This document shows positions 17,762 through 48,358 of a stretch of DNA of 64,000 bases, piece after piece (the first letter of the stretch is position 1; each line of letters opens with the position of its first letter). The notes beneath the pieces were generated by a model. It worked only from the letters and a program-made list of their open reading frames with translations, did no database searches and was not told the DNA's origin. A program made the translations under genes and the position numbers. The stretch comes from a virus, in IMG/VR virus record IMGVR_UViG_3300042731_011014, positions 96,001-160,000 of that record. One strand, written 5' to 3'.

Positions 17762-18130
17762 CTAGGATACTTCCCTGCTAAAATCAACTTGAACATCATT
17801 TGCCTCAGCTAAAAATTCATAAAAAATATCTATTGTTACAATATTCTCATCGACCTCTATATTTACAGAAAGAATATCAATTCTAGGCTCCCATGTTCTT
17901 AAAGATCGATAAACCTCTCTGCGAGCCTTGGCATCAAGTAATTCGTCATTATGCTCAAAAACAAGTTCATAAATTTCACTACCAAAGCCAGGGAGCATCA
18001 CTCTCTCGCCTTTTCTCGTGCTAAGTATCTGCCTAATTGAGCTTTTTATAACCTCTCTATCCTCCTCAGTAGCAGGAATTCCACTTTTTCCTTTTCTAAA
18101 TGGATAAGATATTCCCTTAATCACAGCCAT
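17762..18130 (-). CDS. gp25: Baseplate protein, GPW/gp25 family
   Basis: IKSSIRQILSTRKGERVMLPGFGSEIYELVFE...WEPRI. Confidence 0.92.
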   Translation of the reverse strand: MAVIKGISYPFRKGKSGIPATEEDREVIKSSIRQILSTRKGERVMLPGFGSEIYELVFEHNDELLDAKARREVYRSLRTWEPRIDILSVNIEVDENIVTIDIFYEFLAEANDVQVDFSREVS

Positions 18131-18138
18131 AAATCACC

Positions 18139-18645
18139 TCATATCAATGGCATTGGAGGCGGTGGGGGTGGAATAGGAGGTGGTACAATAAATGTAACTA
18201 GCGCTGTCTTTGTTGCCGCATCAATAATCGTAGCCATTTGATTTGCAATACTATCATAAGTGTTTTTTAGGTTAGCCAACGCCCCAGCTATTCCCGGTCC
18301 TATCATTGCCGCACCAGGCATCACAAGGCACATCCCAGGGTGTGGAGCTGGTGCAAACATCACCGGAGGGGCTGTCCAGTAAGCCATAACAGCATTTTGG
18401 ATCGCCATCGCAAACGTCATAGCTTGGCCCTGTGGACTTAATGCACCCATGAGCGTAGTCATCATTAGTGCTTTCTCTGCACCGGTAAAAATCGGAGTAG
18501 ACGGGCCAGCCATAGCCGCACTTGCATAATTTGCATAGGCATCAGCAAAGGCCTTCGCCGCATCAAGATGTTGTTTATTATTCTCAGCCACATCCTTAAG
18601 AAAGGATTTGATCGGGTTAACTAACTTTATCGGAATCAATGGCAT
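18139..18645 (-). CDS. Ala/Pro/Met-rich hypothetical baseplate-region protein
   Basis: 168-aa ORF between the spike/HNH genes and gp25; poly-Pro C-terminus. Confidence 0.6.
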   Translation of the reverse strand: MPLIPIKLVNPIKSFLKDVAENNKQHLDAAKAFADAYANYASAAMAGPSTPIFTGAEKALMMTTLMGALSPQGQAMTFAMAIQNAVMAYWTAPPVMFAPAPHPGMCLVMPGAAMIGPGIAGALANLKNTYDSIANQMATIIDAATKTALVTFIVPPPIPPPPPPMPLI

Positions 18646-18648
18646 AAA

Positions 18649-19326
18649 TCACCTTACTTCTATTATATCACTTTTTAATTCATCAATCTCAGTAAACTCG
18701 TTAAAATATTTGGAATGGAGCCTGCTATGACACTCCGCACAACACCAAACAACATCAAGAGGCTTGCTGTAATCTTTATGGTGAGCTTCTATATTCTTAT
18801 TAGATCCACAAATACCGCACAGCCCCCTTATTAATTTTCCACTCCTAACTGCTGCGCTAACAGCACCTCTGGCCTTTAGTTTTTCTTTATTTTTTAAATC
18901 TAATCTAATTTTTCCGCTCTTAAGTATTAGTTTTTCTTTAATTTCTGGTCTTTGCCTATATTTTTTATACATTTCTTTAATTTCTGGTCTTTGCCTATAT
19001 CTTCTACCGTATTCTCTATTCTTTTTTTTATTTTCCGGCTTCTGCTTAATTATAGCTCGCCTTCCACTAATCTTATACTTCTCTCTATATTCCATCTCTT
19101 TTTGCTTAACATCAAACCTTTGTCGATATTCCTTACGTCTTTCTTTAAACTCTGGAATCTGTTCACGCTCTCTTCTTTTTTGTTTTGTTTCTGGTCTTTG
19201 GCTATATTTTTTTTGGCAATCCCTACAATGGCTTCGCCTTCCATCTTTTGAAGAACTTTTTCTATTAAAACAGTTTAGTGATTTTATTTCTCCACACCTA
19301 CTGCATTTCTTCTTGCCTAAGTTCAT
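18649..19326 (-). CDS. Free-standing HNH endonuclease with N-terminal Cys4 zinc finger
   Basis: CSRC...CRDC at the N-terminus; CGICGSNKNIEAHHKDYSKPLDVVWCCAECHSRLH at the C-terminus. Confidence 0.85.
   Translation of the reverse strand: MNLGKKKCSRCGEIKSLNCFNRKSSSKDGRRSHCRDCQKKYSQRPETKQKRREREQIPEFKERRKEYRQRFDVKQKEMEYREKYKISGRRAIIKQKPENKKKNREYGRRYRQRPEIKEMYKKYRQRPEIKEKLILKSGKIRLDLKNKEKLKARGAVSAAVRSGKLIRGLCGICGSNKNIEAHHKDYSKPLDVVWCCAECHSRLHSKYFNEFTEIDELKSDIIEVR
18933..19000. repeat. 29-bp identical direct repeat, 39-bp period, inside the HNH gene
   Basis: tttctttaatttctggtctttgcctatat at 18933 and 18972 (YRQRPEIKE twice). Confidence 0.9.
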
Positions 19327-33033: not shown

Positions 33034-35553
33034 TTAGCCAGCAGAAGCAGTTTTTTGCTGAAATCTAATCCTAACAAACTCGCTTGGTTTCTCAGGTGCG
33101 ATGTAAACATCAATAACTATGAATCCAGCATCAATACTGCCTTGTGGATTATTGCTTGTGTCAACAATTACTGCAAACGCTTCCTCTGGTGAATTTCCGG
33201 CAAAATAACCATCGTTGTAAAGATTGTTTAGAAAACCAACAATCTGTGTTTTTATCCTTGCCCAGAGACCAGGACCATTATTTTCAAATACAATCCAATG
33301 GGTTGCATTGAATACAGATTTTTTGACAAAGATAAAAAGCCTTCTGGCCTGGATATATCTCCATTCACTGTCAAGTGACAATGTTCGAACACCCCAAACT
33401 GCCCGTCCGGTAAAACTTGAGTCCATAAACGGATTAATCCTGGTACTATAAAGAACGTCTCTTTCTCCTTTAGATAGAAGTCGTTCAATACCAATGCAAT
33501 AATTTAGCTTACCATCCTCAATACCACCTGGGGCCTTTCCTACGTTCCGATTTGAATCAGTTCGGGCATAAACACCAGCAACATGCCCAACAGGAGGCAA
33601 TAGCATTGGGCGACCCTCATTTAAGGGATCGGCGATCTGAAGATGCGGATAATACAGCGCACAGTAACTTGTGTTTTTATTTAGCGTTTGACGATTCCAT
33701 TTTGCTGCATCAGTTGGAGTATAGTTCATTGGAACCGCAGCAAGAACAAAACAATCATCCCTGTTCTCTGCGTAACCAATTTGATCATCTAGTGATGTTG
33801 GATCGCTACAAAAATCAGGAATAGAAATCTGCATAGGTTCCTCAATCTTATCAAAGGCATATATACCTTCAAGATCAGCTGCCAATGCAGGGGCAGTTAC
33901 ATCATTTCGAGTAATCGCCGCAGATCCATCAGCTCCACCGGAAAGTTCACAATAAGCTGTTCCAGTGGGTTCCAGAATATAAGTAACCTGAATATTGGTG
34001 TCTGCCGATGGCTCACTACCACCGTTAAAAATAACCGTACAGGCACCGGTCGTATAATTAACCACTGAGCCACTAGCTAGATTGGTACCAGAAATTACTC
34101 CGGTTCCATCACCCTGATCAGCGTCACCGCCCTCAGAAGCCCCGCCGTCAACATGAACAGTACAAGATCCGGGAAGAATTGACCATCCTGTTGGGACAAC
34201 AAGATCTGCCGTAAAAGTGTCAGCCGATCCGGTTCCGTAACCAATCGAATACAGTGACTTGCTAACTGGTTTCAAGGAAGGTGGTACGTCAGGGCCATCA
34301 GCGCCAACAGTTAGATCGACACGTGTCGAAAGAGCATTGATAACGTTTGGTGCGTACCTTGCGCTATCTACATCACTAAAACTTAGTTCGAGATATTGTT
34401 CCTCAATCTGATACACATCATCATCATCTTTTTCATACACATAATAATCGAATTTTGTATAGGCGCCGGTTACAGCACTTTTATAATCCTCATTGAGTCT
34501 AATTTCGCCTTTAACCCCATTTCCCCATGCACCTTTGGATATTGCATCAACATCCCAATATGCACCGGCTGCGACACCATTATAAGTGTGTGGGTAGCTT
34601 CCTTCGGCAAGACCTAGTAGTAAATTGGAGCAATCATTTTCACTTGGCGCACTAAACTCAACTTCTGATAATACTCCAGTTGTTGGGGACGTAAAAACCA
34701 GTCGGTTATCATCATCTTTTGCGACAATATCTTGCGTGTTTGAAGTATAAGTATGAGGATATGCACCTTCATCAAGACCAAGTAAAAGATTGGTGCAATC
34801 ATTTGCTGATGGTGCGGCAAACTCAATCTCTGTACCGGCCTTAAATAGTAACTTGGTGCCTTGAACAAAACACACCGTTGAACCAACGGCCGTGTTAATA
34901 TTGGCAGCAATTACAGTTAACGCATAAGATCCACCTACACCACTATCACCGGTAACATCAATATCCGCAGCTCCACCGTCATCAATATCTAAATTGATAT
35001 TAAAGTGTGTACCATCTAATGTGAGAATAGGATCAGTAATCGCTGCACCAAGAAATCGTGCTTTTTGCCAATCGTTATTAATATTGGTCACAATTGCAGA
35101 TAATGCATAAGATCCACCAACACCTTCGTCATTAGTAACATCAATCTCTTTTGCTTCGCCACCATCAATTGCAACATTGATATTATAATGTGTACCATCT
35201 AACGCCGTCGCTGGATCAGGTAAAACTCTCCCGGTTGACTCAGCCGCTGATGCAGACGAATTATGAGCACATGCAGCCGCGGCCGCATCACTCGGAGTTA
35301 CCCTAACCATATAAAGACGCTGGCCTCCATTTGCAAAAAAAGCTGTTACAGCAAAAGAAATATATGATTTTTTCCAATGTTCTCCAAAAGTTCGGAAATA
35401 CTGTTCCAAACTTGTTATTAATGTAGCTTCATGCTCGGGACCGCGAGGCGTAAACCCCATGGTCGCCATTGTTGAAGTCGAAACAGCAGCAATGGCCCCA
35501 GCACCGGCTTTCCTCTCTTCGATATAAATTCCGGGACTTAGATAACTGGGCAT
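33034..35553 (-). CDS. gp18: Contractile tail sheath protein
   Basis: Start reassigned to MPSYLSPGIYIEE (GGAGG SD); LYYPHL, PPVGHVAGVYARTD, AVWGVRTL, WRYIQARRLF, APEKPSEF. Confidence 0.95.
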   Translation of the reverse strand: MPSYLSPGIYIEERKAGAGAIAAVSTSTMATMGFTPRGPEHEATLITSLEQYFRTFGEHWKKSYISFAVTAFFANGGQRLYMVRVTPSDAAAAACAHNSSASAAESTGRVLPDPATALDGTHYNINVAIDGGEAKEIDVTNDEGVGGSYALSAIVTNINNDWQKARFLGAAITDPILTLDGTHFNINLDIDDGGAADIDVTGDSGVGGSYALTVIAANINTAVGSTVCFVQGTKLLFKAGTEIEFAAPSANDCTNLLLGLDEGAYPHTYTSNTQDIVAKDDDNRLVFTSPTTGVLSEVEFSAPSENDCSNLLLGLAEGSYPHTYNGVAAGAYWDVDAISKGAWGNGVKGEIRLNEDYKSAVTGAYTKFDYYVYEKDDDDVYQIEEQYLELSFSDVDSARYAPNVINALSTRVDLTVGADGPDVPPSLKPVSKSLYSIGYGTGSADTFTADLVVPTGWSILPGSCTVHVDGGASEGGDADQGDGTGVISGTNLASGSVVNYTTGACTVIFNGGSEPSADTNIQVTYILEPTGTAYCELSGGADGSAAITRNDVTAPALAADLEGIYAFDKIEEPMQISIPDFCSDPTSLDDQIGYAENRDDCFVLAAVPMNYTPTDAAKWNRQTLNKNTSYCALYYPHLQIADPLNEGRPMLLPPVGHVAGVYARTDSNRNVGKAPGGIEDGKLNYCIGIERLLSKGERDVLYSTRINPFMDSSFTGRAVWGVRTLSLDSEWRYIQARRLFIFVKKSVFNATHWIVFENNGPGLWARIKTQIVGFLNNLYNDGYFAGNSPEEAFAVIVDTSNNPQGSIDAGFIVIDVYIAPEKPSEFVRIRFQQKTASAG

Positions 35554-35611
35554 TTTAACCTCCAAAAAAAACCTTACGGTATTTGTTCATTTTTAATGCT
35601 TATTAAGCTTT

Positions 35612-36142
35612 TTATATCTCTTCATCATTGTTACTAGTCCAATCAATTTCACCTTTGAAATATGAACTATGTTTATCCTCTTCAACTTCTTCATCTAAGT
35701 CCAATTCGTTTATTGTGCTCTCTTCTTTAATGGGTTCGCTTTTTTCTACATTATCCATTTTCTCTTCAATAATCTCTTGCTCATCTACTAAATCTTTTGT
35801 TTGCGTTTCTTTTTGTTTTTCTTCCTCTAGTTGATCGTCTTTGACTGTGATTTCCTCGACATTTTCATTAGTCTCGGGATCACTAACTTCCCTTATATTA
35901 TTAACCGGCTGAATGTTTTGTTCAACCTCTTTTTTCTTTTTATTTTCTATACTTACTTCTATCTGCTCTTCTAAATAGATTTCTTTTATCCATTTACTTC
36001 TAAGATACCTGCTAATATCAGGAGAATTAACATTAATACCCTCAACCATAAAAGTAGAAAATCTCGGTACTAATATTGAAGGACCCTCAATAAGATTAAT
36101 CGGTAATGGCCCACTGAAAATGTTTCTGTATGCTTTTTTCAT
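35612..36142 (-). CDS. Acidic hypothetical protein upstream of the sheath
   Basis: 176 aa, Glu-rich C-terminal half. Confidence 0.6.
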   Translation of the reverse strand: MKKAYRNIFSGPLPINLIEGPSILVPRFSTFMVEGINVNSPDISRYLRSKWIKEIYLEEQIEVSIENKKKKEVEQNIQPVNNIREVSDPETNENVEEITVKDDQLEEEKQKETQTKDLVDEQEIIEEKMDNVEKSEPIKEESTINELDLDEEVEEDKHSSYFKGEIDWTSNNDEEI

Positions 36143-36220
36143 AAAAAAACCCCTTTACTTTGTCCACGCGGCGGAAACCCCTGATTTCAATCAGGAGAGG
36201 AGCCACCTAACGATTGAACA

Positions 36221-36354
36221 CTATGCATACGAATAACCGTCTATCCGTTGCAATATTTAAAAGCGATACCTTTCTTTAGCAATTCCCTTACACGTGCCGG
36301 ATGGCAGGGCATTAACGGCATTTTGTTTTTGTCTAAAACAAGAGCTTTTAACAT
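36221..36354 (-). pseudogene. iscB: iscB remnant: PLMP N-terminus joined to the C-terminal tail
   Basis: MLKALVLDKNKMPLMPCHPARVRELLKKG-IAFKYCNG* (36354..36241) and, in another frame, ILQRIDGYSYA* (36256..36221). Confidence 0.88.
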
Positions 36355-36591
36355 TGGGAGTTACCTCCCAATTCTCTGCTTTCGCAGGTAAAGGTCACCT
36401 CGGCAAAGTTAATGCACGGTTTTATATGCAAACAGCACTGGCTTAACCCCTTAGACCTGGTGAAGCATTCCAAAGTGCCTATATATTTGCGCTTAACGTA
36501 GCTCAAGAAGTATTGCTCCTTTGCTTAGCCTGGTCAACATAAGGCCTGTTATTTTTCACAAACCTCCGACTTAAAGTCGAGGGCAGTTGAC
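36355..36591 (-). ncRNA. omega RNA / HEARO-like scaffold
   Basis: GTCAAC (36591-36586) can pair with GTTGAC (36538-36533); blocks GTTGACCAGGCTAAG, GAGCTACGTT, ATAGGCACTTTGGAATGC and GCCGAGG; final hairpin ATTGGGAG-GTAA-CTCCCAAT next to the iscB ATG. Confidence 0.8.
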
Positions 36592-36593
36592 AT

Positions 36594-37331
36594 CTATTCC
36601 TTTTGGTGCATATTGTGTTTACCTTCTTTAACTGCCTTATAGACAACCGGATCATTCAAATCTATTTGCCCCTCAACTCTAATAGTTACCGACCATACAG
36701 CTAATCGATTACCTATTTCAGCAAATTCGCTAATATCTGAAAATCCTTCAAGATAAACATCGTATGTTCTGTCCTCATCAAGGCTATCTTTCACGTTAAC
36801 CAACGAATATGGCTGATAAGTTCTTAGGACCTTCTTTAAAATAGCCTGCGTAACTCTCCTGTATTTGGATCGAATAATTATGGTGTAGTTAATATCATAG
36901 GGCCATGCCATAACTTTAGTTTCGTAAGAATCATATCCATTAAGGGTTGTCCCGTCAGGCTTTGTAATCACAACCGGATTTGCACCATCAGCAGGTCTTT
37001 TATACTGCAAACCAAGGGAAGGCCATCTTCCAAGTGCCAAAACCGGCTCACCATTTCTTTGGACCTCAATTGAAGGTAAAACGTGATTTTCAACTGTCGC
37101 CTTCGGATTGGTAAAAGTTATCGGGATACCTGGAGCAGTAGTGCCTGTACTATCAACAGGTAAATCTGATGAACCTAGCCCGGCTATATCGCCTAATGGA
37201 ATTATGTAATTTTGCTGATTATTACCGTCCTGGGACCATCCAAGCAACTGTCCTCCCATAGTAGTAATTACACCCGTATCAAAATCCCTAACCCAAACAT
37301 CACCAGTTTTTTGATCACCAACTAATGGCAT
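36594..37331 (-). CDS. Tail terminator / completion protein (gp15-like)
   Basis: LPSIEVQR...WPYDINYTIIIRSKYRRVTQAILKKVL; upstream of the sheath. Confidence 0.6.
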   Translation of the reverse strand: MPLVGDQKTGDVWVRDFDTGVITTMGGQLLGWSQDGNNQQNYIIPLGDIAGLGSSDLPVDSTGTTAPGIPITFTNPKATVENHVLPSIEVQRNGEPVLALGRWPSLGLQYKRPADGANPVVITKPDGTTLNGYDSYETKVMAWPYDINYTIIIRSKYRRVTQAILKKVLRTYQPYSLVNVKDSLDEDRTYDVYLEGFSDISEFAEIGNRLAVWSVTIRVEGQIDLNDPVVYKAVKEGKHNMHQKE

Positions 37332-44446: not shown

Positions 44447-45332
44447 TTATTACTTTAGCCTTTTCAAATTTATACCTTCCAAAACAATCAAAACCTTGAG
44501 TATTAAAAATCTTTTTAATCTCCGGTCTTACATTTTCAGATCTATCAACTATCCAAATACACTCTGTACGTTCTTTATCAATGCTAACTTCTTTTATTTT
44601 AGAAGCGAATATTTTAACTTCAAACCTGATAGTAAACCATTCATCTGGAACATAGTTGTTATCATATCCTGATAAAACGAATGAGCCCTCTGCATTATTA
44701 AGAGCAAGGATAAGGTTTTTATAATAGCTATCGTCAATTTTAAATTCATAGTTCTGATCAGTGCCAATATATGGCGGGTCACAATAAAATAAAGTTTGCG
44801 GACTGTCCCATTTTTTAATTATATTAATAGCATCATCACATTCAATATAAACACTCTGCAATCTATCAAGTGGACTTTTTAATCTGTTATTCCCATTAGA
44901 CCAAGTAACACAATGATTTTGAGTAAATAAACCAAAACCCCATCCGCCATTTTCTATTTTTGCAAATGATTGATTTATATTAACATAATACGCCCATGCT
45001 TTTTCCAGATCGCTAGCGCCATTAGGATTTTTACATATTTCTACAGCCTTTTTATGTTCAGCCTTAGAGTATGGAGTAAGTTTTAAATGCCTTATTAATT
45101 CTTCACCATCATCACTACGTAGCACCCTAAAAAAATTAACTAAAAGCTCATTTTTATCGTTAAGAACTTCACGATAGTGAGTACTGTTAGTTATCATAGG
45201 TAGTGGTTTTGTAAAAAATACTGCTGCACCACCACAGAAAGGCTCTACATAAACAGTGTGATTGGGGAAATACTTCACAATTTTCGAAGCTATACGCTGC
45301 TTGCCACCATAATACGAAATAGGAGTTTTCAT
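44433..45332 (-). CDS. dam: DNA adenine methyltransferase (D12/Dam class)
   Basis: ISYYGGKQRIA, YVEPFCGGAAVFF, LNDKN, FYCDPPY. Confidence 0.92.
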   Translation of the reverse strand: MKTPISYYGGKQRIASKIVKYFPNHTVYVEPFCGGAAVFFTKPLPMITNSTHYREVLNDKNELLVNFFRVLRSDDGEELIRHLKLTPYSKAEHKKAVEICKNPNGASDLEKAWAYYVNINQSFAKIENGGWGFGLFTQNHCVTWSNGNNRLKSPLDRLQSVYIECDDAINIIKKWDSPQTLFYCDPPYIGTDQNYEFKIDDSYYKNLILALNNAEGSFVLSGYDNNYVPDEWFTIRFEVKIFASKIKEVSIDKERTECIWIVDRSENVRPEIKKIFNTQGFDCFGRYKFEKAKVINETY

Positions 45333-45511
45333 TTACCACCAACAAGTTTCATTGCTTTTTCTCGACCCTCATTAGGCTGACCAGTTTTCGGATCAACATT
45401 AAATAAACCAGGAGGAAGTCTCATATACTTACCAGCAAAAGTAGCTGCACTTTTACACGCCTTCTCATAATTCAAATTAAGTTCTTTCATATTCCTCATG
45501 AATTTCGCCAT
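45329..45511 (-). CDS. Small hypothetical protein, possibly the C-terminal part of a frameshifted gene
   Basis: 60 aa; overlaps a 29-aa ORF in another frame. Confidence 0.45.
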   Translation of the reverse strand: MAKFMRNMKELNLNYEKACKSAATFAGKYMRLPPGLFNVDPKTGQPNEGREKAMKLVGGK

Positions 45512-45566
45512 AATTAGTACCTGGAGCTATTCCAGAAAGCATTCTTAATTCTTCTACAAGTTTCAT
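45477..45566 (-). CDS. 29-aa ORF with an EELRxLSG leader
   Basis: Hand translation MKLVEELRMLSGIAPGTNYGEIHEEYERT*, starting 3 nt after the neck gene stop. Confidence 0.5.
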   Translation of the reverse strand: MKLVEELRMLSGIAPGTNYGEIHEEYERT

Positions 45567-45569
45567 TAG

Positions 45570-46313
45570 TCACTCCGTAAAAAAGCTTAATGGGTAAAAA
45601 TTTCTTGCTTCCTCTTTTAAGATCTCAAGCTCCTTGTCTGACTCATCAAGTAACTGGGCACCATCAAGTACCACTGCACCACCGGGTACAGGAATATTAT
45701 CGAACTTGGATCGGATCCTACCAAGCGTTTGCTTTGCGTGTGCTATGCAGCATTTTCTCAGAAAATCCTCCTCACGCGGTCGAAGCCGATCTCCGTCAAC
45801 AATACTTCTTTTATATTCAAAAATAGCTGTCCCACTTTGAGTACGCTCCGGCATTATAAGAAGAATGCCAGTATCAAAATCAAACTCAAAAGCAGTGTCA
45901 CCACTAAGAACCCGTTTTATTTGCTCTTGATGCTGAATCGATTGAACGATCCCGCTATACGTCAATTCAGACGAAATATGAGCGCTTTCATAGGGCACAC
46001 CAGACAGTCCAAGGAAATCATAATTGAGCATAAAACTAACGTCTACAGGGCCAGCAGGGAGCCATAACTTAGTCACAGAAACAAGTTCGTCAAACTCGTC
46101 AGCAGACAGAATCGTGCTAAGATCGTATTCCATAACCCCAGCTGTAATTTGGAATGATGCCTTTTTCTTTTTTCCAAGACGAGCAGAATACCACCTCAAA
46201 CCGTCGTCAATAGCATCATCAAGATCATTACTGCTAAGTTCAACACACATCTGTTCGCCGCCAAGCTTACGAACAATATAATCCTTCAGTTTAGTTCTCT
46301 TAATAACTCCCAT
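45570..46313 (-). CDS. gp13: Neck / head-tail adaptor (T4 gp13-like)
   Basis: KLKDYIVRKLGGEQMCVELSSNDLDDAIDDGL; AKQTLGRIRSKF...PGGAVVLDG. Confidence 0.88.
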   Translation of the reverse strand: MGVIKRTKLKDYIVRKLGGEQMCVELSSNDLDDAIDDGLRWYSARLGKKKKASFQITAGVMEYDLSTILSADEFDELVSVTKLWLPAGPVDVSFMLNYDFLGLSGVPYESAHISSELTYSGIVQSIQHQEQIKRVLSGDTAFEFDFDTGILLIMPERTQSGTAIFEYKRSIVDGDRLRPREEDFLRKCCIAHAKQTLGRIRSKFDNIPVPGGAVVLDGAQLLDESDKELEILKEEARNFYPLSFFTE

Positions 46314-46329
46314 CTAAACATCCTTAGTC

Positions 46330-46797
46330 TTACTCTCCTGTTAATTTTTTCTTGGCTGACTCAACAAGGGACTCAGTAAATTCGGTTGTTCTATTTATTT
46401 TCATAGCCAAGTTAACAGGGTGAACGTTTGCTATTTTCTCGAAACTGCCAAAGCCGGCCTTGATAAGTTTTTTAGCTGTCTGTATTCCAATACCATCCAG
46501 TTGGGTAAGATCATCCTCCTTCTCTGGCTCAATACTAAAATCCAGACCATCACTTAGTAATGGATCAATGTCTGAATCAATAAACTCATCAATAGGATCG
46601 ATTACATCTTTAACTTCCTCTTTTGGCGGTTCCTGTTTTACTTCAACATACTCTACCAAGATAGGTGGCTTTTTTTTAAAAGTTGGCTTCAAATACTTTA
46701 CCCATTCTTTCCCCGCCAAAATTGTAGACCTGTCAATGTCCTGACCGTTAATACATACACTATCCGCTGGCCAGGCGGGATTTAATTTATACTTCAT
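46330..46797 (-). CDS. Protein with C-terminal helix-hairpin-helix domain
   Basis: DDLTQLDGIGIQTAKKLIKAGFGSFEKIA; start moved to MKYKLN (AAGGAG SD). Confidence 0.75.
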   Translation of the reverse strand: MKYKLNPAWPADSVCINGQDIDRSTILAGKEWVKYLKPTFKKKPPILVEYVEVKQEPPKEEVKDVIDPIDEFIDSDIDPLLSDGLDFSIEPEKEDDLTQLDGIGIQTAKKLIKAGFGSFEKIANVHPVNLAMKINRTTEFTESLVESAKKKLTGE

Positions 46798-46815
46798 TGT
46801 GCACTCCTTGCGAAG

Positions 46816-46856
46816 CAAAAAGAAAGGAATAAGGAGGGAGACGAATGCCTCCCTCC
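46816..46856 (-). terminator. Rho-independent terminator after the major capsid gene
   Basis: GGAGGGAGG-CATTCG-TCTCCCTCC followed by a T-rich tract. Confidence 0.75.
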
Positions 46857-46876
46857 CTCAAAGGCTAAATTAAGAA

Positions 46877-48358
46877 CTATGGCAGGTTAGAACAAGTGAT
46901 TAAACCATAGTACTTATTGTTAACTAATTTTTTCGCGTAGCGTGTCCGCATCCCCTTCCTGAAGTTTTGGTCATCAGGGTCGAGGAATGTTGGAGTAACC
47001 TGTAAGGGCACATAAGGCGCATACACCATTCCTGAATCCAAGAATGTTGGTCCCTTTAGGCCTATCATGATTTGATCATCTGGGAATAGTGGATCAACAT
47101 AAACAGTCCATCGGTTTTGTAACACGCCTAGGCCATATACACCGAATCCTGACGGCGACGTTGGAGGTTGAGGTGCGGGTTGACCAAGGGTCCCTTGACC
47201 AGCCGGCATACTTCCACCATCAAAAACTGATTTAAAGCTACCATGAGTCTCCATGGCGCTAAACAAGGATGCAGCCCGAGTGCTTGTAACAATCCAATTA
47301 CCCGGACCACGCAAGGTTTGCTTACCGACTTCCTGGGAAACCTTGGCAATCTTGGTTAAAAGAGTCATGTAATGCTCTACTGGGCTATAGCTTAAACCAG
47401 ACACATCCGCATCAAACGATTCCTTGTTTGTACCAGCGGCAGCACCTAAATACATGTCCATAATTAGCTCACGGTCGATTTCCAGAGCCAGTTCTGATGC
47501 TACACCACCAACTAACTCCCCTTCAGCGTCCATACCGTGTATGGCTTTTAAATCATCGGCAGCTTCAGCGCTCCACAAGAATTTCAGCTTCCGGCTACTT
47601 ACCTTGATTGGGTCAAGGCCGATATCCAAATAGACTTGAGGCACGGTAACATTTGCCCCTTCCATATCGAAAAAGTAGTTAGCGTAGATAGGAGCTTTGT
47701 CATCTACATTACCATCCCAGGTAATATCATAGGCACCATCCGAGTAAGTAATCGTTGATGCTGCACCAGTATCACCAGCTAAATCCCCACTTCCGTCGGG
47801 ATCATAGATTCTTTTGGCTGCGGTTCCAACCAGGGTTGTAAACTCAAGACCAACTTGGGCTTGCGGACATGAAATAAAAGGTTTTACAGGTGTCCATGAA
47901 AGGTTACCAGTGTAATTCGCTGTCGCACCATTACCGGTCGCGATAACTTCGTGATAGATATACTCTGAAGAATAATACCTGTCGAAGTTCTCGATCATAT
48001 TGTCGCCAGCTGTAATTGTTCCCTTGGAGGTACCGTATTTGTACTCCCAAGTGAAAATGCCTCCTATAGGGCCAGTCATTGGTTGTATAGAAACGAGATT
48101 GTTAGCAATTAAGTTCGGCCATACCCTACGAATCATAGGGAAGACGAACTTCACGAAATCAGCGAAGTTACCTGTGGTTGTATTTTCACTGAGGTTTCGG
48201 ACATGCTGCATTTGATTTTCGAATAAAATAGCCGTGGCTGCCCTACGATAGGGTTCATGGATACCTTCTAAAAGGGGTGCCCATTTTTTAGTTACAGCTG
48301 CGACAAAACTCTTATTTTGAATTGAACGGGTTTCGTTCATTATTTCTCTGGCTTCCAT
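46877..48358 (-). CDS. gp23: Major capsid protein (T4 gp23-like)
   Basis: FPMIRRVWPNLIANNLVSIQPMTGPIGGIF; SRKLKFLWSAEAADDLKAIHGMDAEGEL; YAPYVPL; TRYA. Confidence 0.97.
   Translation of the reverse strand: MEAREIMNETRSIQNKSFVAAVTKKWAPLLEGIHEPYRRAATAILFENQMQHVRNLSENTTTGNFADFVKFVFPMIRRVWPNLIANNLVSIQPMTGPIGGIFTWEYKYGTSKGTITAGDNMIENFDRYYSSEYIYHEVIATGNGATANYTGNLSWTPVKPFISCPQAQVGLEFTTLVGTAAKRIYDPDGSGDLAGDTGAASTITYSDGAYDITWDGNVDDKAPIYANYFFDMEGANVTVPQVYLDIGLDPIKVSSRKLKFLWSAEAADDLKAIHGMDAEGELVGGVASELALEIDRELIMDMYLGAAAGTNKESFDADVSGLSYSPVEHYMTLLTKIAKVSQEVGKQTLRGPGNWIVTSTRAASLFSAMETHGSFKSVFDGGSMPAGQGTLGQPAPQPPTSPSGFGVYGLGVLQNRWTVYVDPLFPDDQIMIGLKGPTFLDSGMVYAPYVPLQVTPTFLDPDDQNFRKGMRTRYAKKLVNNKYYGLITCSNLP

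Follow-up and report, generated by a model that had tools for sequence, protein, structure and literature searches.

The locus and its closest described relatives

IscB is the ancestor of Cas9. The genes that encode it are carried by ISC transposons, which are non-autonomous elements of the IS200/IS605 group (Kapitonov et al., 2016, PMC4810608). Among ISC elements, a class that inserts at the target N|ATGA and begins with a 5'-GTCA terminus is known (Kapitonov et al., 2016). The protein is directed by an omega RNA, whose guide comes from the DNA that lies 5' of the RNA scaffold (Meers et al., 2023, doi 10.1101/2023.03.14.532601; PMC9640706). By the convention used for IS200/IS605 elements, the omega RNA adjoins the right end, or RE (Meers et al., 2023).

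The omega RNA that guides OgeuIscB shows which parts of the scaffold matter. Mutating its nexus pseudoknot abolishes activity, and the hairpin that carries the pseudoknot stabilises the core of the RNA (Kato et al., 2022, PMC9640706). Conversely, some of the peripheral stem-loops make no contact with IscB (Kato et al., 2022). Omega RNAs do not always travel with a gene for their protein. The OMEGA systems include stand-alone, or orphan, omega RNAs (Altae-Tran et al., 2021, as summarised in PMC10691335), and PATE-like elements frequently code for omega RNAs too (Meers et al., 2023, doi 10.1101/2023.03.14.532601).

The locus considered here comes from a T4-like phage found in a wetland. Its source is a virus record in IMG/VR that is 177,890 bp long, CheckV-complete, and 37.8% GC. 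The window that was analysed is a stretch of 64,000 nucleotides, bases 96001-160000 of that record; positions given below are those of the window unless they are called genome positions. Within it, on the minus strand at 36143-36591, lies a decayed ISC/IscB element of 449 bp, called copy A here, with a GC content of 43.7%, against 37.8% for the genome. We consider copy A to be, quite probably, an ISC transposon derivative that is dead or dying, and we extend that judgment to the whole course of decay: insertion, deletions, loss of guide function, and persistence.

Copy A is most easily placed beside ISC elements of the N|ATGA class, such as ISC1-1_MA and ISC2-1_MS (PMC4810608). Like these, it has a 5'-GTCA terminus and is inserted 5' of ATGA without duplication. 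Like these, too, it has subterminal hairpins, and its left end (LE) is common to TnpB-type IS605 elements that are oppositely oriented. Unlike these, however, copy A has an iscB of about 47 codons split between two frames, and its omega RNA is internally deleted. Its circumstances also differ, the host being a T4-like phage, the site being a junction between genes, and the end of the element offering an SD-like sequence to the downstream gene.

The comparison with stand-alone and PATE-like omega elements is less comfortable. Copy A resembles them in having no nuclease and no transposase, while its ends, an omega scaffold, and a guide derived from the flank are kept. In the cases described, however, effector loci are found in the same genome; here, the phage has no IscB, and the scaffold of copy A is damaged. 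A sister copy in the same genome, copy B, fits this category better than copy A does.

With the OgeuIscB-omega RNA (Kato et al., 2022, PMC9640706), the family to which copy A belongs shares a closing stem, a nexus pseudoknot hairpin with a loop that pairs with downstream GGNNN, terminal hairpins ahead of the ATG, a 5' guide of 16-17 nt, and a purine-rich TAM that ATGA fits. Unlike the OgeuIscB complex, the phage offers no protein partner, and copy A itself has lost by deletion the 3' strand of the nexus hairpin and a strand of the adjoining stem.

Much of this is, of course, already published. This includes the identity of HEARO with the omega RNA, the insertion of ISC elements at N|ATGA, and the existence of stand-alone and PATE-like omega RNAs. 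The locus does not create a new category. What it adds is a precisely delimited series of decay, accompanied by an empty site and by a full-length sibling, and an end that bears a ribosome-binding site.

The empty site

The element is located between the stop codon of a gene that encodes a 245-aa tail protein and the ATG of a gene that encodes a 176-aa protein. All genes around it in that part of the window are on the minus strand. When the 449 bp are removed in silico, the junction that results reads TAG + AT + ATGAAA. Two relatives (L115 and L116) have the homologous junction without the element; there it reads TAG + TT + ATGAGA, and the upstream protein is 61% identical. The agreement between the reconstructed and the natural empty junctions means that the boundaries proposed in the first-pass annotation, which had described a 449-bp element in the tail operon, are exact, and that the target is N|ATGA.

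Thus, copy A displays the behavior expected of an ISC transposon: insertion at N|ATGA without target-site duplication, as checked by the empty site, and subterminal hairpins at both ends (36563-36583 and about 36177-36198). The second of these hairpins had been called a right-end hairpin. The hairpin exists, but the end was misassigned; by the IS200/IS605 convention, it is the LE. ATGA comes after each of the four members of the family (copies A and B, a scar called C, and the element in a related contig, L008).

The operon into which the element inserted occurs elsewhere too. Three relatives (L113, L115, and L116) have the same tail operon with the insertion absent, and the order 273/134/242/178/sheath/gp19, again with no insertion, is kept in two T4-like contigs from related phages. 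In L113 and L115, homologues of the 176-aa gene are found at the equivalent position, and two homologues of the 245-aa protein (P0051 and P0052) sit in syntenic tail modules. Peptide patterns found no close relatives of that 245-aa protein in IMG/VR, and a blastn search of the locus against GenBank phages gave no match. Copy A has the orientation of the late tail genes, and a simple scan predicted no minus-strand terminator within the element. The features of the locus are collected in Table 1.

Table 1. Features of copy A and its flanks, in window coordinates
Feature	Position	Strand	Basis
Whole mini-element	36143..36591	minus	Empty-site comparison with L115/L116
Predicted 16-nt guide-encoding flank: last codons and TAG of the 245-aa gene, then AT	36592..36607	minus	Inferred from the 5' guide rule
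Subterminal hairpin at RE, first of the omega scaffold; element starts GTCAAC at 36591	36563..36583	minus	
Omega-RNA scaffold, 237 nt	36355..36591	minus	HEARO RF02033 and family alignment
Junction of the 30-nt internal omega-RNA deletion, between CAG repeats	36458..36462	minus	Comparison with copy B and L008
Remnant iscB ORF, 37 codons: PLMP N-terminus of 29 aa fused at GIA to FKYC	36241..36354	minus	
Out-of-frame last 11 iscB codons, ILQRIDGYSYA, then stop	36221..36256	minus	P0002 C-terminus
Lone TTGCAAC repeat, where a 10-nt slip deletion shifted the frame	36247..36253	minus	L008 comparison
LE subterminal hairpin, then GGGGTTTCC	36177..36198 (about)	minus	Common to copy B and L008
Terminal element segment with SD-like AAAGGGG (36150-36156), 7 nt before the downstream ATG	36143..36167	minus	
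ATGAAA: N|ATGA target, predicted TAM, start codon of the 176-aa gene	36137..36142	minus	
Upstream phage gene, 245 aa, weak match to tail sheath stabilizer	36594..37331	minus	phrog_227, E 6e-4
Downstream phage gene, 176 aa, no function assigned	35612..36142	minus	
Tail sheath gene, beyond the 176-aa gene	33034-35565	minus	phrog_23, E 9e-60

What remains of iscB

The remnant of iscB has 29 N-terminal codons joined to about 18 C-terminal codons. A 46-aa reading of these, taken across the two frames, was the query in protein searches. The 37-codon ORF matches Pfam RRXRR over positions 2-40 only, with 29 bits, and aligns to residues 1-33 of P0002, a 427-aa protein that is the closest full-length IscB found. 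This, in turn, means that copy A is a deletion derivative and not a full member of the ISC group. The RuvC and HNH domains, which an ISC element that encodes IscB would have, are missing. Here, the first-pass annotation had read the sequence correctly, as a PLMP N-terminus fused to the C-terminal tail of IscB with RuvC and HNH gone; both ends match P0002, and the first matches RRXRR.

The manner in which the two ends were joined can be reconstructed. The C-terminus of P0002 reads ...GIGFKYCNILQRIDGYSYA; in the window, GIAFKYC is in frame and ILQRIDGYSYA is displaced by one frame. Through the large deletion, KKG(IA) of the N-terminus has become fused with (Q)GI(G)FKYC of the C-terminus where the codons are similar. 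The break in the frame is a separate event. The full-length relative in L008 has TTGCAAC-ATC-TTGCAAC, with a period of 10, where the window keeps one TTGCAAC; the break is therefore a 10-nt slip deletion. Collapse of a 10-bp repeat had been proposed for it. A deletion of ten nucleotides between direct repeats is indeed what is found, but the repeat is TTGCAAC rather than the exact 10-mer that was suggested.

Neither IscB nor TnpA (the Y1 transposase) is found anywhere in the complete genome of the phage. Thus, the search for a full iscB in the same genome, which had been put forward as a check, came back empty, and so the genome holds no effector that might be compatible with the omega RNA. 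A compatible-looking IscB, in a full-length element with matching ends, is seen only in the related phage contig L008.

The scaffold of the omega RNA

Directly upstream of the ATG of the PLMP remnant, and co-oriented with it, a scaffold begins at the end of the element (36591), which is where a HEARO RNA should be. The Rfam model for HEARO (RF02033) matches 36388-36591 over its full length (1-211), with an E value of 8e-13 and a score of 65.7 bits. Two extra hairpins, one having a GAAA loop and one sequestering GGAGG, extend the scaffold to the iscB ATG at 36354. A HEARO/omega-like scaffold of about 237 nt, as first described, is therefore present.

Its condition is another matter. The curated gathering score for HEARO is 83 bits, and copy A, unlike members of RF02033, falls below it. 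At gathering thresholds, Rfam has no match in the whole window; HEARO surfaces only under an E-value threshold. A covariance-model search, also proposed at the outset as a check, thus delivers the match that was anticipated, but beneath the curated threshold. Copy B scores 140.5 bits. IscB-linked viral loci score 91-156 bits where they exceed the cut-off, as 15 of the 20 scanned did.

An alignment of 19 members of the family, with a consensus structure calculated by RNAalifold, locates the damage. The consensus has 47 pairs, and 32 of these show compensatory changes. The scaffold of copy A is 30 nt shorter than that of copy B and those of all 17 aligned relatives, through a deletion between CAG repeats that takes the nexus pseudoknot hairpin's 3' strand along with the 5' strand of the stem after it. 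Because of this deletion, copy A is without one strand of 21 of the 47 consensus pairs (columns 186-198/209-222 and 224-237/265-276), and is without the nearly invariant segments CTCTRCGG and GTTAAACAG. Further, positions of about 107-135 in the HEARO model, unlike in the members of RF02033, are unmatched or unpaired. The complete set of conserved HEARO helices is accordingly not to be found in copy A.

The first of the damaged hairpins is identified by its loop. The loop (NNNCC) pairs with the GGNNN that follows a conserved CGA in 18 of 18 relatives, using many types of pairs, and this makes it the nexus pseudoknot hairpin known from the OgeuIscB omega RNA. The nucleotides that form the pseudoknot are themselves kept in copy A; it is the 3' strand of their hairpin that is lost.

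The omega RNA had been called intact-looking. With its score below 83 bits, 21 of 47 pairs reduced to one strand, and GTTAAACAG gone, that description cannot be maintained. Broken stems in the scaffold had been named beforehand as an observation that would speak against the first interpretation, and the stems are broken, that of the nexus pseudoknot hairpin among them.

Guide, target, and transcripts

The 16 nt upstream of the element, together with the ATGAAA downstream, make the canonical predicted pair of guide and TAM for an allele that is free of the element. ATGA fits the TAM of OgeuIscB (NNRR/NWRRNA). The empty site in the nearest relative, however, differs from the predicted guide by three mismatches, at TAM-proximal positions 2, 6, and 12. 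Such TAM-proximal mismatches abolish cleavage by OgeuIscB (Kato et al., 2022, PMC9640706).

The phage itself is present in several wetland metagenomes, and the source run and a second sample both reproduce sequence that is specific to copy A. No contig that bridges the empty site was found in the source and sister wetland samples. One RNA library gave contigs that overlap the element. All of these differ from the phage at position 36416 and run into unlike sequence, and they are therefore derived from relatives rather than from copy A. One contig in the RNA library, from the same kind of wetland, has a near-identical N-terminus followed by further iscB coding sequence; a related and apparently longer iscB is present in that library. 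A sigma-70-like promoter match on the minus strand of the element, at 36537-36509, was judged coincidental, as it overlaps the family-conserved GTTGACCAGG.

Sister copies and relatives

Copy B has 343 bp and lies at genome positions 83384-83726 on the minus strand, 12.3 kb before the start of the window (L002:1430-1772). It is flanked by a gene for a 160-aa membrane-like protein and a gene for a 106-aa protein. Here, the deletion in iscB begins at codon 2 and reaches to its last five codons, which leaves no ORF, and the omega RNA is intact. Removing copy B in silico restores an ATGA stop/start overlap, in which ...KPNPVKS and its stop are followed by MKK.... A stand-alone omega element would have no protein gene, both of its ends, and an intact scaffold. 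Copy B has all of these, as does an element in a further contig, L009; copy A does not. Copy B is, then, a better candidate than copy A for a guide that acts in trans.

The two copies are unevenly similar. The 3' 111 nt of their omega RNAs are 100% identical (window 36349-36459, genome 83455-83565), and identity is about 91% in their 5' 93 nt, where the pseudoknot hairpin shows compensatory changes. The pattern of identity suggests gene conversion between copies dispersed within the phage genome. Selection could, of course, have produced the identical tract instead; this possibility counts against the view that copy A is simply decaying.

A third trace of the family, scar C, is about 47 nt long and lies at genome positions of about 65942-65985, minus strand (L004:1495-1545), directly before the ATG of a gene for a 498-aa protein. 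It retains the final portion of the omega RNA's terminal hairpin together with the outermost 20 nt of the element, in which the SD-like AAAGGG lies. In chained alignment it scores 52, whereas shuffled sequences give 21 +/- 4. Copies A and B and scar C make up a decay series of one element family within one phage genome.

The full-length form is found in L008 (JGI 3300035141, Ga0373591_005729), a contig from a wetland-type metagenome. It bears an element of the same family, whose omega RNA is about 87-93% identical to that of copy A and whose left end is the same, including the terminal segment and the ATGA. The genes that flank it are 31-41% identical to, and in the same order as, those at about 44662-47334 of the phage genome, where the homologous site in the copy-A phage is an empty ATGA gene start. 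That one phage has the element at a site where the other has none means that the element family circulates in this group of phages. L008 and the relative L115, in which the tail-gene site is empty, were recovered from one metagenome.

The first-pass annotation had recommended a search of phage and host genomes for a full iscB with matching ends. The phage half of that search succeeded, in L008. The host half did not: a 19-mer scan of metagenome and genome collections returned mostly unrelated or sub-threshold HEARO-like matches in diverse bacteria, and no plausible host among them. No IMG/VR sequence matched an exact 20-mer of the omega RNA, and a gapped pattern, narrow in design, for other ORF-less elements with an omega RNA and this LE had 0 matches there. 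The element in L009 (575-938, minus strand, Ga0194110_10067709) has no ORF and an intact omega RNA that scores 128 bits with HEARO. The L009 contig is itself unrelated; at the end of its element, a hairpin is followed by ATGAAC, with which a small duplicated gene begins.

An end that bears a probable ribosome-binding site

The terminal segment of the element, with its AAAGGG, stands 6-7 nt before the ATG of a gene in copy A, in L008 (1566-1593), and in scar C. Copy B carries a diverged version. In relatives with an empty site, an SD sequence (AAGGAG) is inside the last codons of the upstream gene. Insertion must therefore displace the native SD by 449 bp upstream, and the element brings its own as a substitute. 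This would also account for what scar C has kept, with the end of the element supplying the putative ribosome-binding site of the gene downstream. The terminal segment probably persists for this reason, and it is the only part of the element that looks co-opted.

The same 23-29 nt of LE sequence ends TnpB-type IS605 elements, in seven stretches on six other viral contigs (L025-L031). These elements carry their gene in the opposite orientation. Their hairpin is followed by GGAGG-TTTT-ATGA, and three of their five distinct sites are clear gene starts. Across the left ends of copy A, L008, and L025-L031, an SD-like motif faces outward 6-13 nt before the ATGA. That ends are shared between ISC and IS605B elements has been described (Kapitonov et al., 2016, PMC4810608), and the hairpin common to these left ends fits that description.

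An element that has such an end and the N|ATGA target is suited to junctions where genes are translationally coupled, and it leaves behind a useful scar. If the arrangement is general, it would help to explain why such elements are tolerated in the compact operons of phages.

How the locus came to be

Under the view that copy A is a dead or dying ISC transposon, its history runs as follows. Sequence comparison supports the first steps. An ISC element inserted at N|ATGA, precisely in the interval from a tail gene's stop codon to the next ATG. Three deletions at short direct repeats came afterwards. One removed about 1.1 kb of iscB, at the GIA/GIG codons. Another removed ten nucleotides between TTGCAAC repeats. 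[quoted passage not shown] After these losses, the RNA of copy A has probably lost the ability to assemble with IscB, and with it its guide function. Transcription of the late tail operon probably carries the relic along passively.

Why, then, should it still be there? Three reasons may be offered. The phage has no TnpA, so the element would not be precisely excised. The last 25 nt or so of the element would now serve as the ribosome-binding site, with the native one 449 bp away. Last, the insertion, or a scar in its place, would destroy the combination of guide target and TAM that the circulating full-length element recognizes.

Some observations count against so complete a decay. Both ends are still there, as are the position of the guide, the TAM, and the nucleotides of the pseudoknot. 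Further, given that some peripheral stem-loops make no contact with IscB, some residual activity of the copy-A omega RNA is conceivable.

The first-pass annotation had offered a livelier interpretation: a guide cassette that programs an IscB supplied in trans. Here, the RNA of copy A, processed from the late transcript, would load onto IscB provided by a sibling phage in the same infection or by the host. Tail-gene junctions free of the element would be cut, and repair would copy the element in, giving homing or marker exclusion. The mechanism is orthodox. The geometry of guide and TAM is canonical, and there are reports of stand-alone omega RNAs that act in trans when compatible effectors are present (as summarised in PMC10691335). 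A source of IscB is conceivable as well, as the related phage of L008 has a full-length element with a very similar omega RNA, and as the RNA library has its contig that runs from a near-identical N-terminus into more iscB. For copy A, the proposal is unlikely. In its RNA, nearly half of the conserved pairs are one-stranded, those of the nexus pseudoknot hairpin included; nearly invariant nucleotides are lost; and its HEARO score is far under that of every IscB-linked copy above threshold. To this must be added the missing IscB in the genome and the three mismatches between guide and nearest empty site. Guide-only homing suits copy B much more than it suits copy A. What survives of the guide cassette is, therefore, a non-autonomous derivative without a nuclease, with canonical geometry and a full-length relative; what does not survive is copy A as a cassette in working order.

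The proposal can be widened to say that the nuclease-less omega cassettes of this phage are gene drives made of guide only, hitch-hikers that borrow IscB from sibling phages of the L008 lineage and for which the ribosome-binding end is an adaptation. We regard this as unlikely. Were it true, copy B would certainly be one of these, and copy A possibly still. In mixed infections, element-free alleles would be cut at the junctions of tail and membrane genes, and the cassettes would spread, or exclude the markers of competitors, without bearing the cost of a nuclease gene. The built-in ribosome-binding site would then be an adaptation to the ATGA junctions of densely packed phage operons.

Alternatively, the relic might have been domesticated as a structured RNA or as a cis-regulatory module of the tail operon, doing more than supplying a ribosome-binding site; for example, it might act in mRNA stability, processing, or translational control. 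Such a role would suit an element that sits in the operon with the orientation of the tail genes, that keeps its terminal SD-like segment even in scar C, and that has 111 nt in common, unchanged, with copy B. Three relatives, however, run the same operon uninserted. The three copies in this genome are in three states of decay, with no single form conserved, and the folding energy of the region is unexceptional (z = -1.8). Domestication, which had been the other suggestion of the first-pass annotation, thus found no support here and seems very improbable.

Any repeated sequence also raises the question of whether an assembler has collapsed two copies, or made a chimera of them, and so created the deletions or the element itself. 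There are two copies with an identical tract in this genome, and Logan contigs do break there. Yet an independent Logan assembly of the source run reproduces 36349-36534, over the junction of the 30-nt deletion, with zero differences, and a contig from the second sample (X2) is identical over 36203-36350, a region unique to copy A. The flanks are coherent, as is the logic of the empty site. On these contigs and junctions an artefact was rejected; it is scarcely credible.

The decay of an ISC transposon, if this is what copy A records, makes the locus a clean and fully delimited natural case of an OMEGA (IscB) system falling apart in a virus, with the empty site, the full-length sibling, and three stages of erosion all available. 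It also implies that the "orphan guide RNAs" of phages can be wreckage rather than weapons. The integrity of an omega RNA should be checked before a function is proposed for it.

IscB and TnpB in viral genomes

IscB is common in IMG/VR, where two peptide patterns recovered 141 confirmed relatives. Two of the full-length relatives, one at L016:10649-12246 and the other in L010, are 55% identical to P0002 and are accompanied by clusters of tRNA genes, which suggests that they come from large phages. The phage that carries copy A, itself without TnpA, has an intact-looking TnpB of 393 aa (genome positions 18125-19303, minus strand, L112). Used as a tblastn query against the phage genome, this TnpB did not bring up a 3' relic of another. 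It matches Pfam PF07282 with 65.6 bits, has the cysteines of a zinc ribbon, and is unrelated to the remnants of the IscB type.
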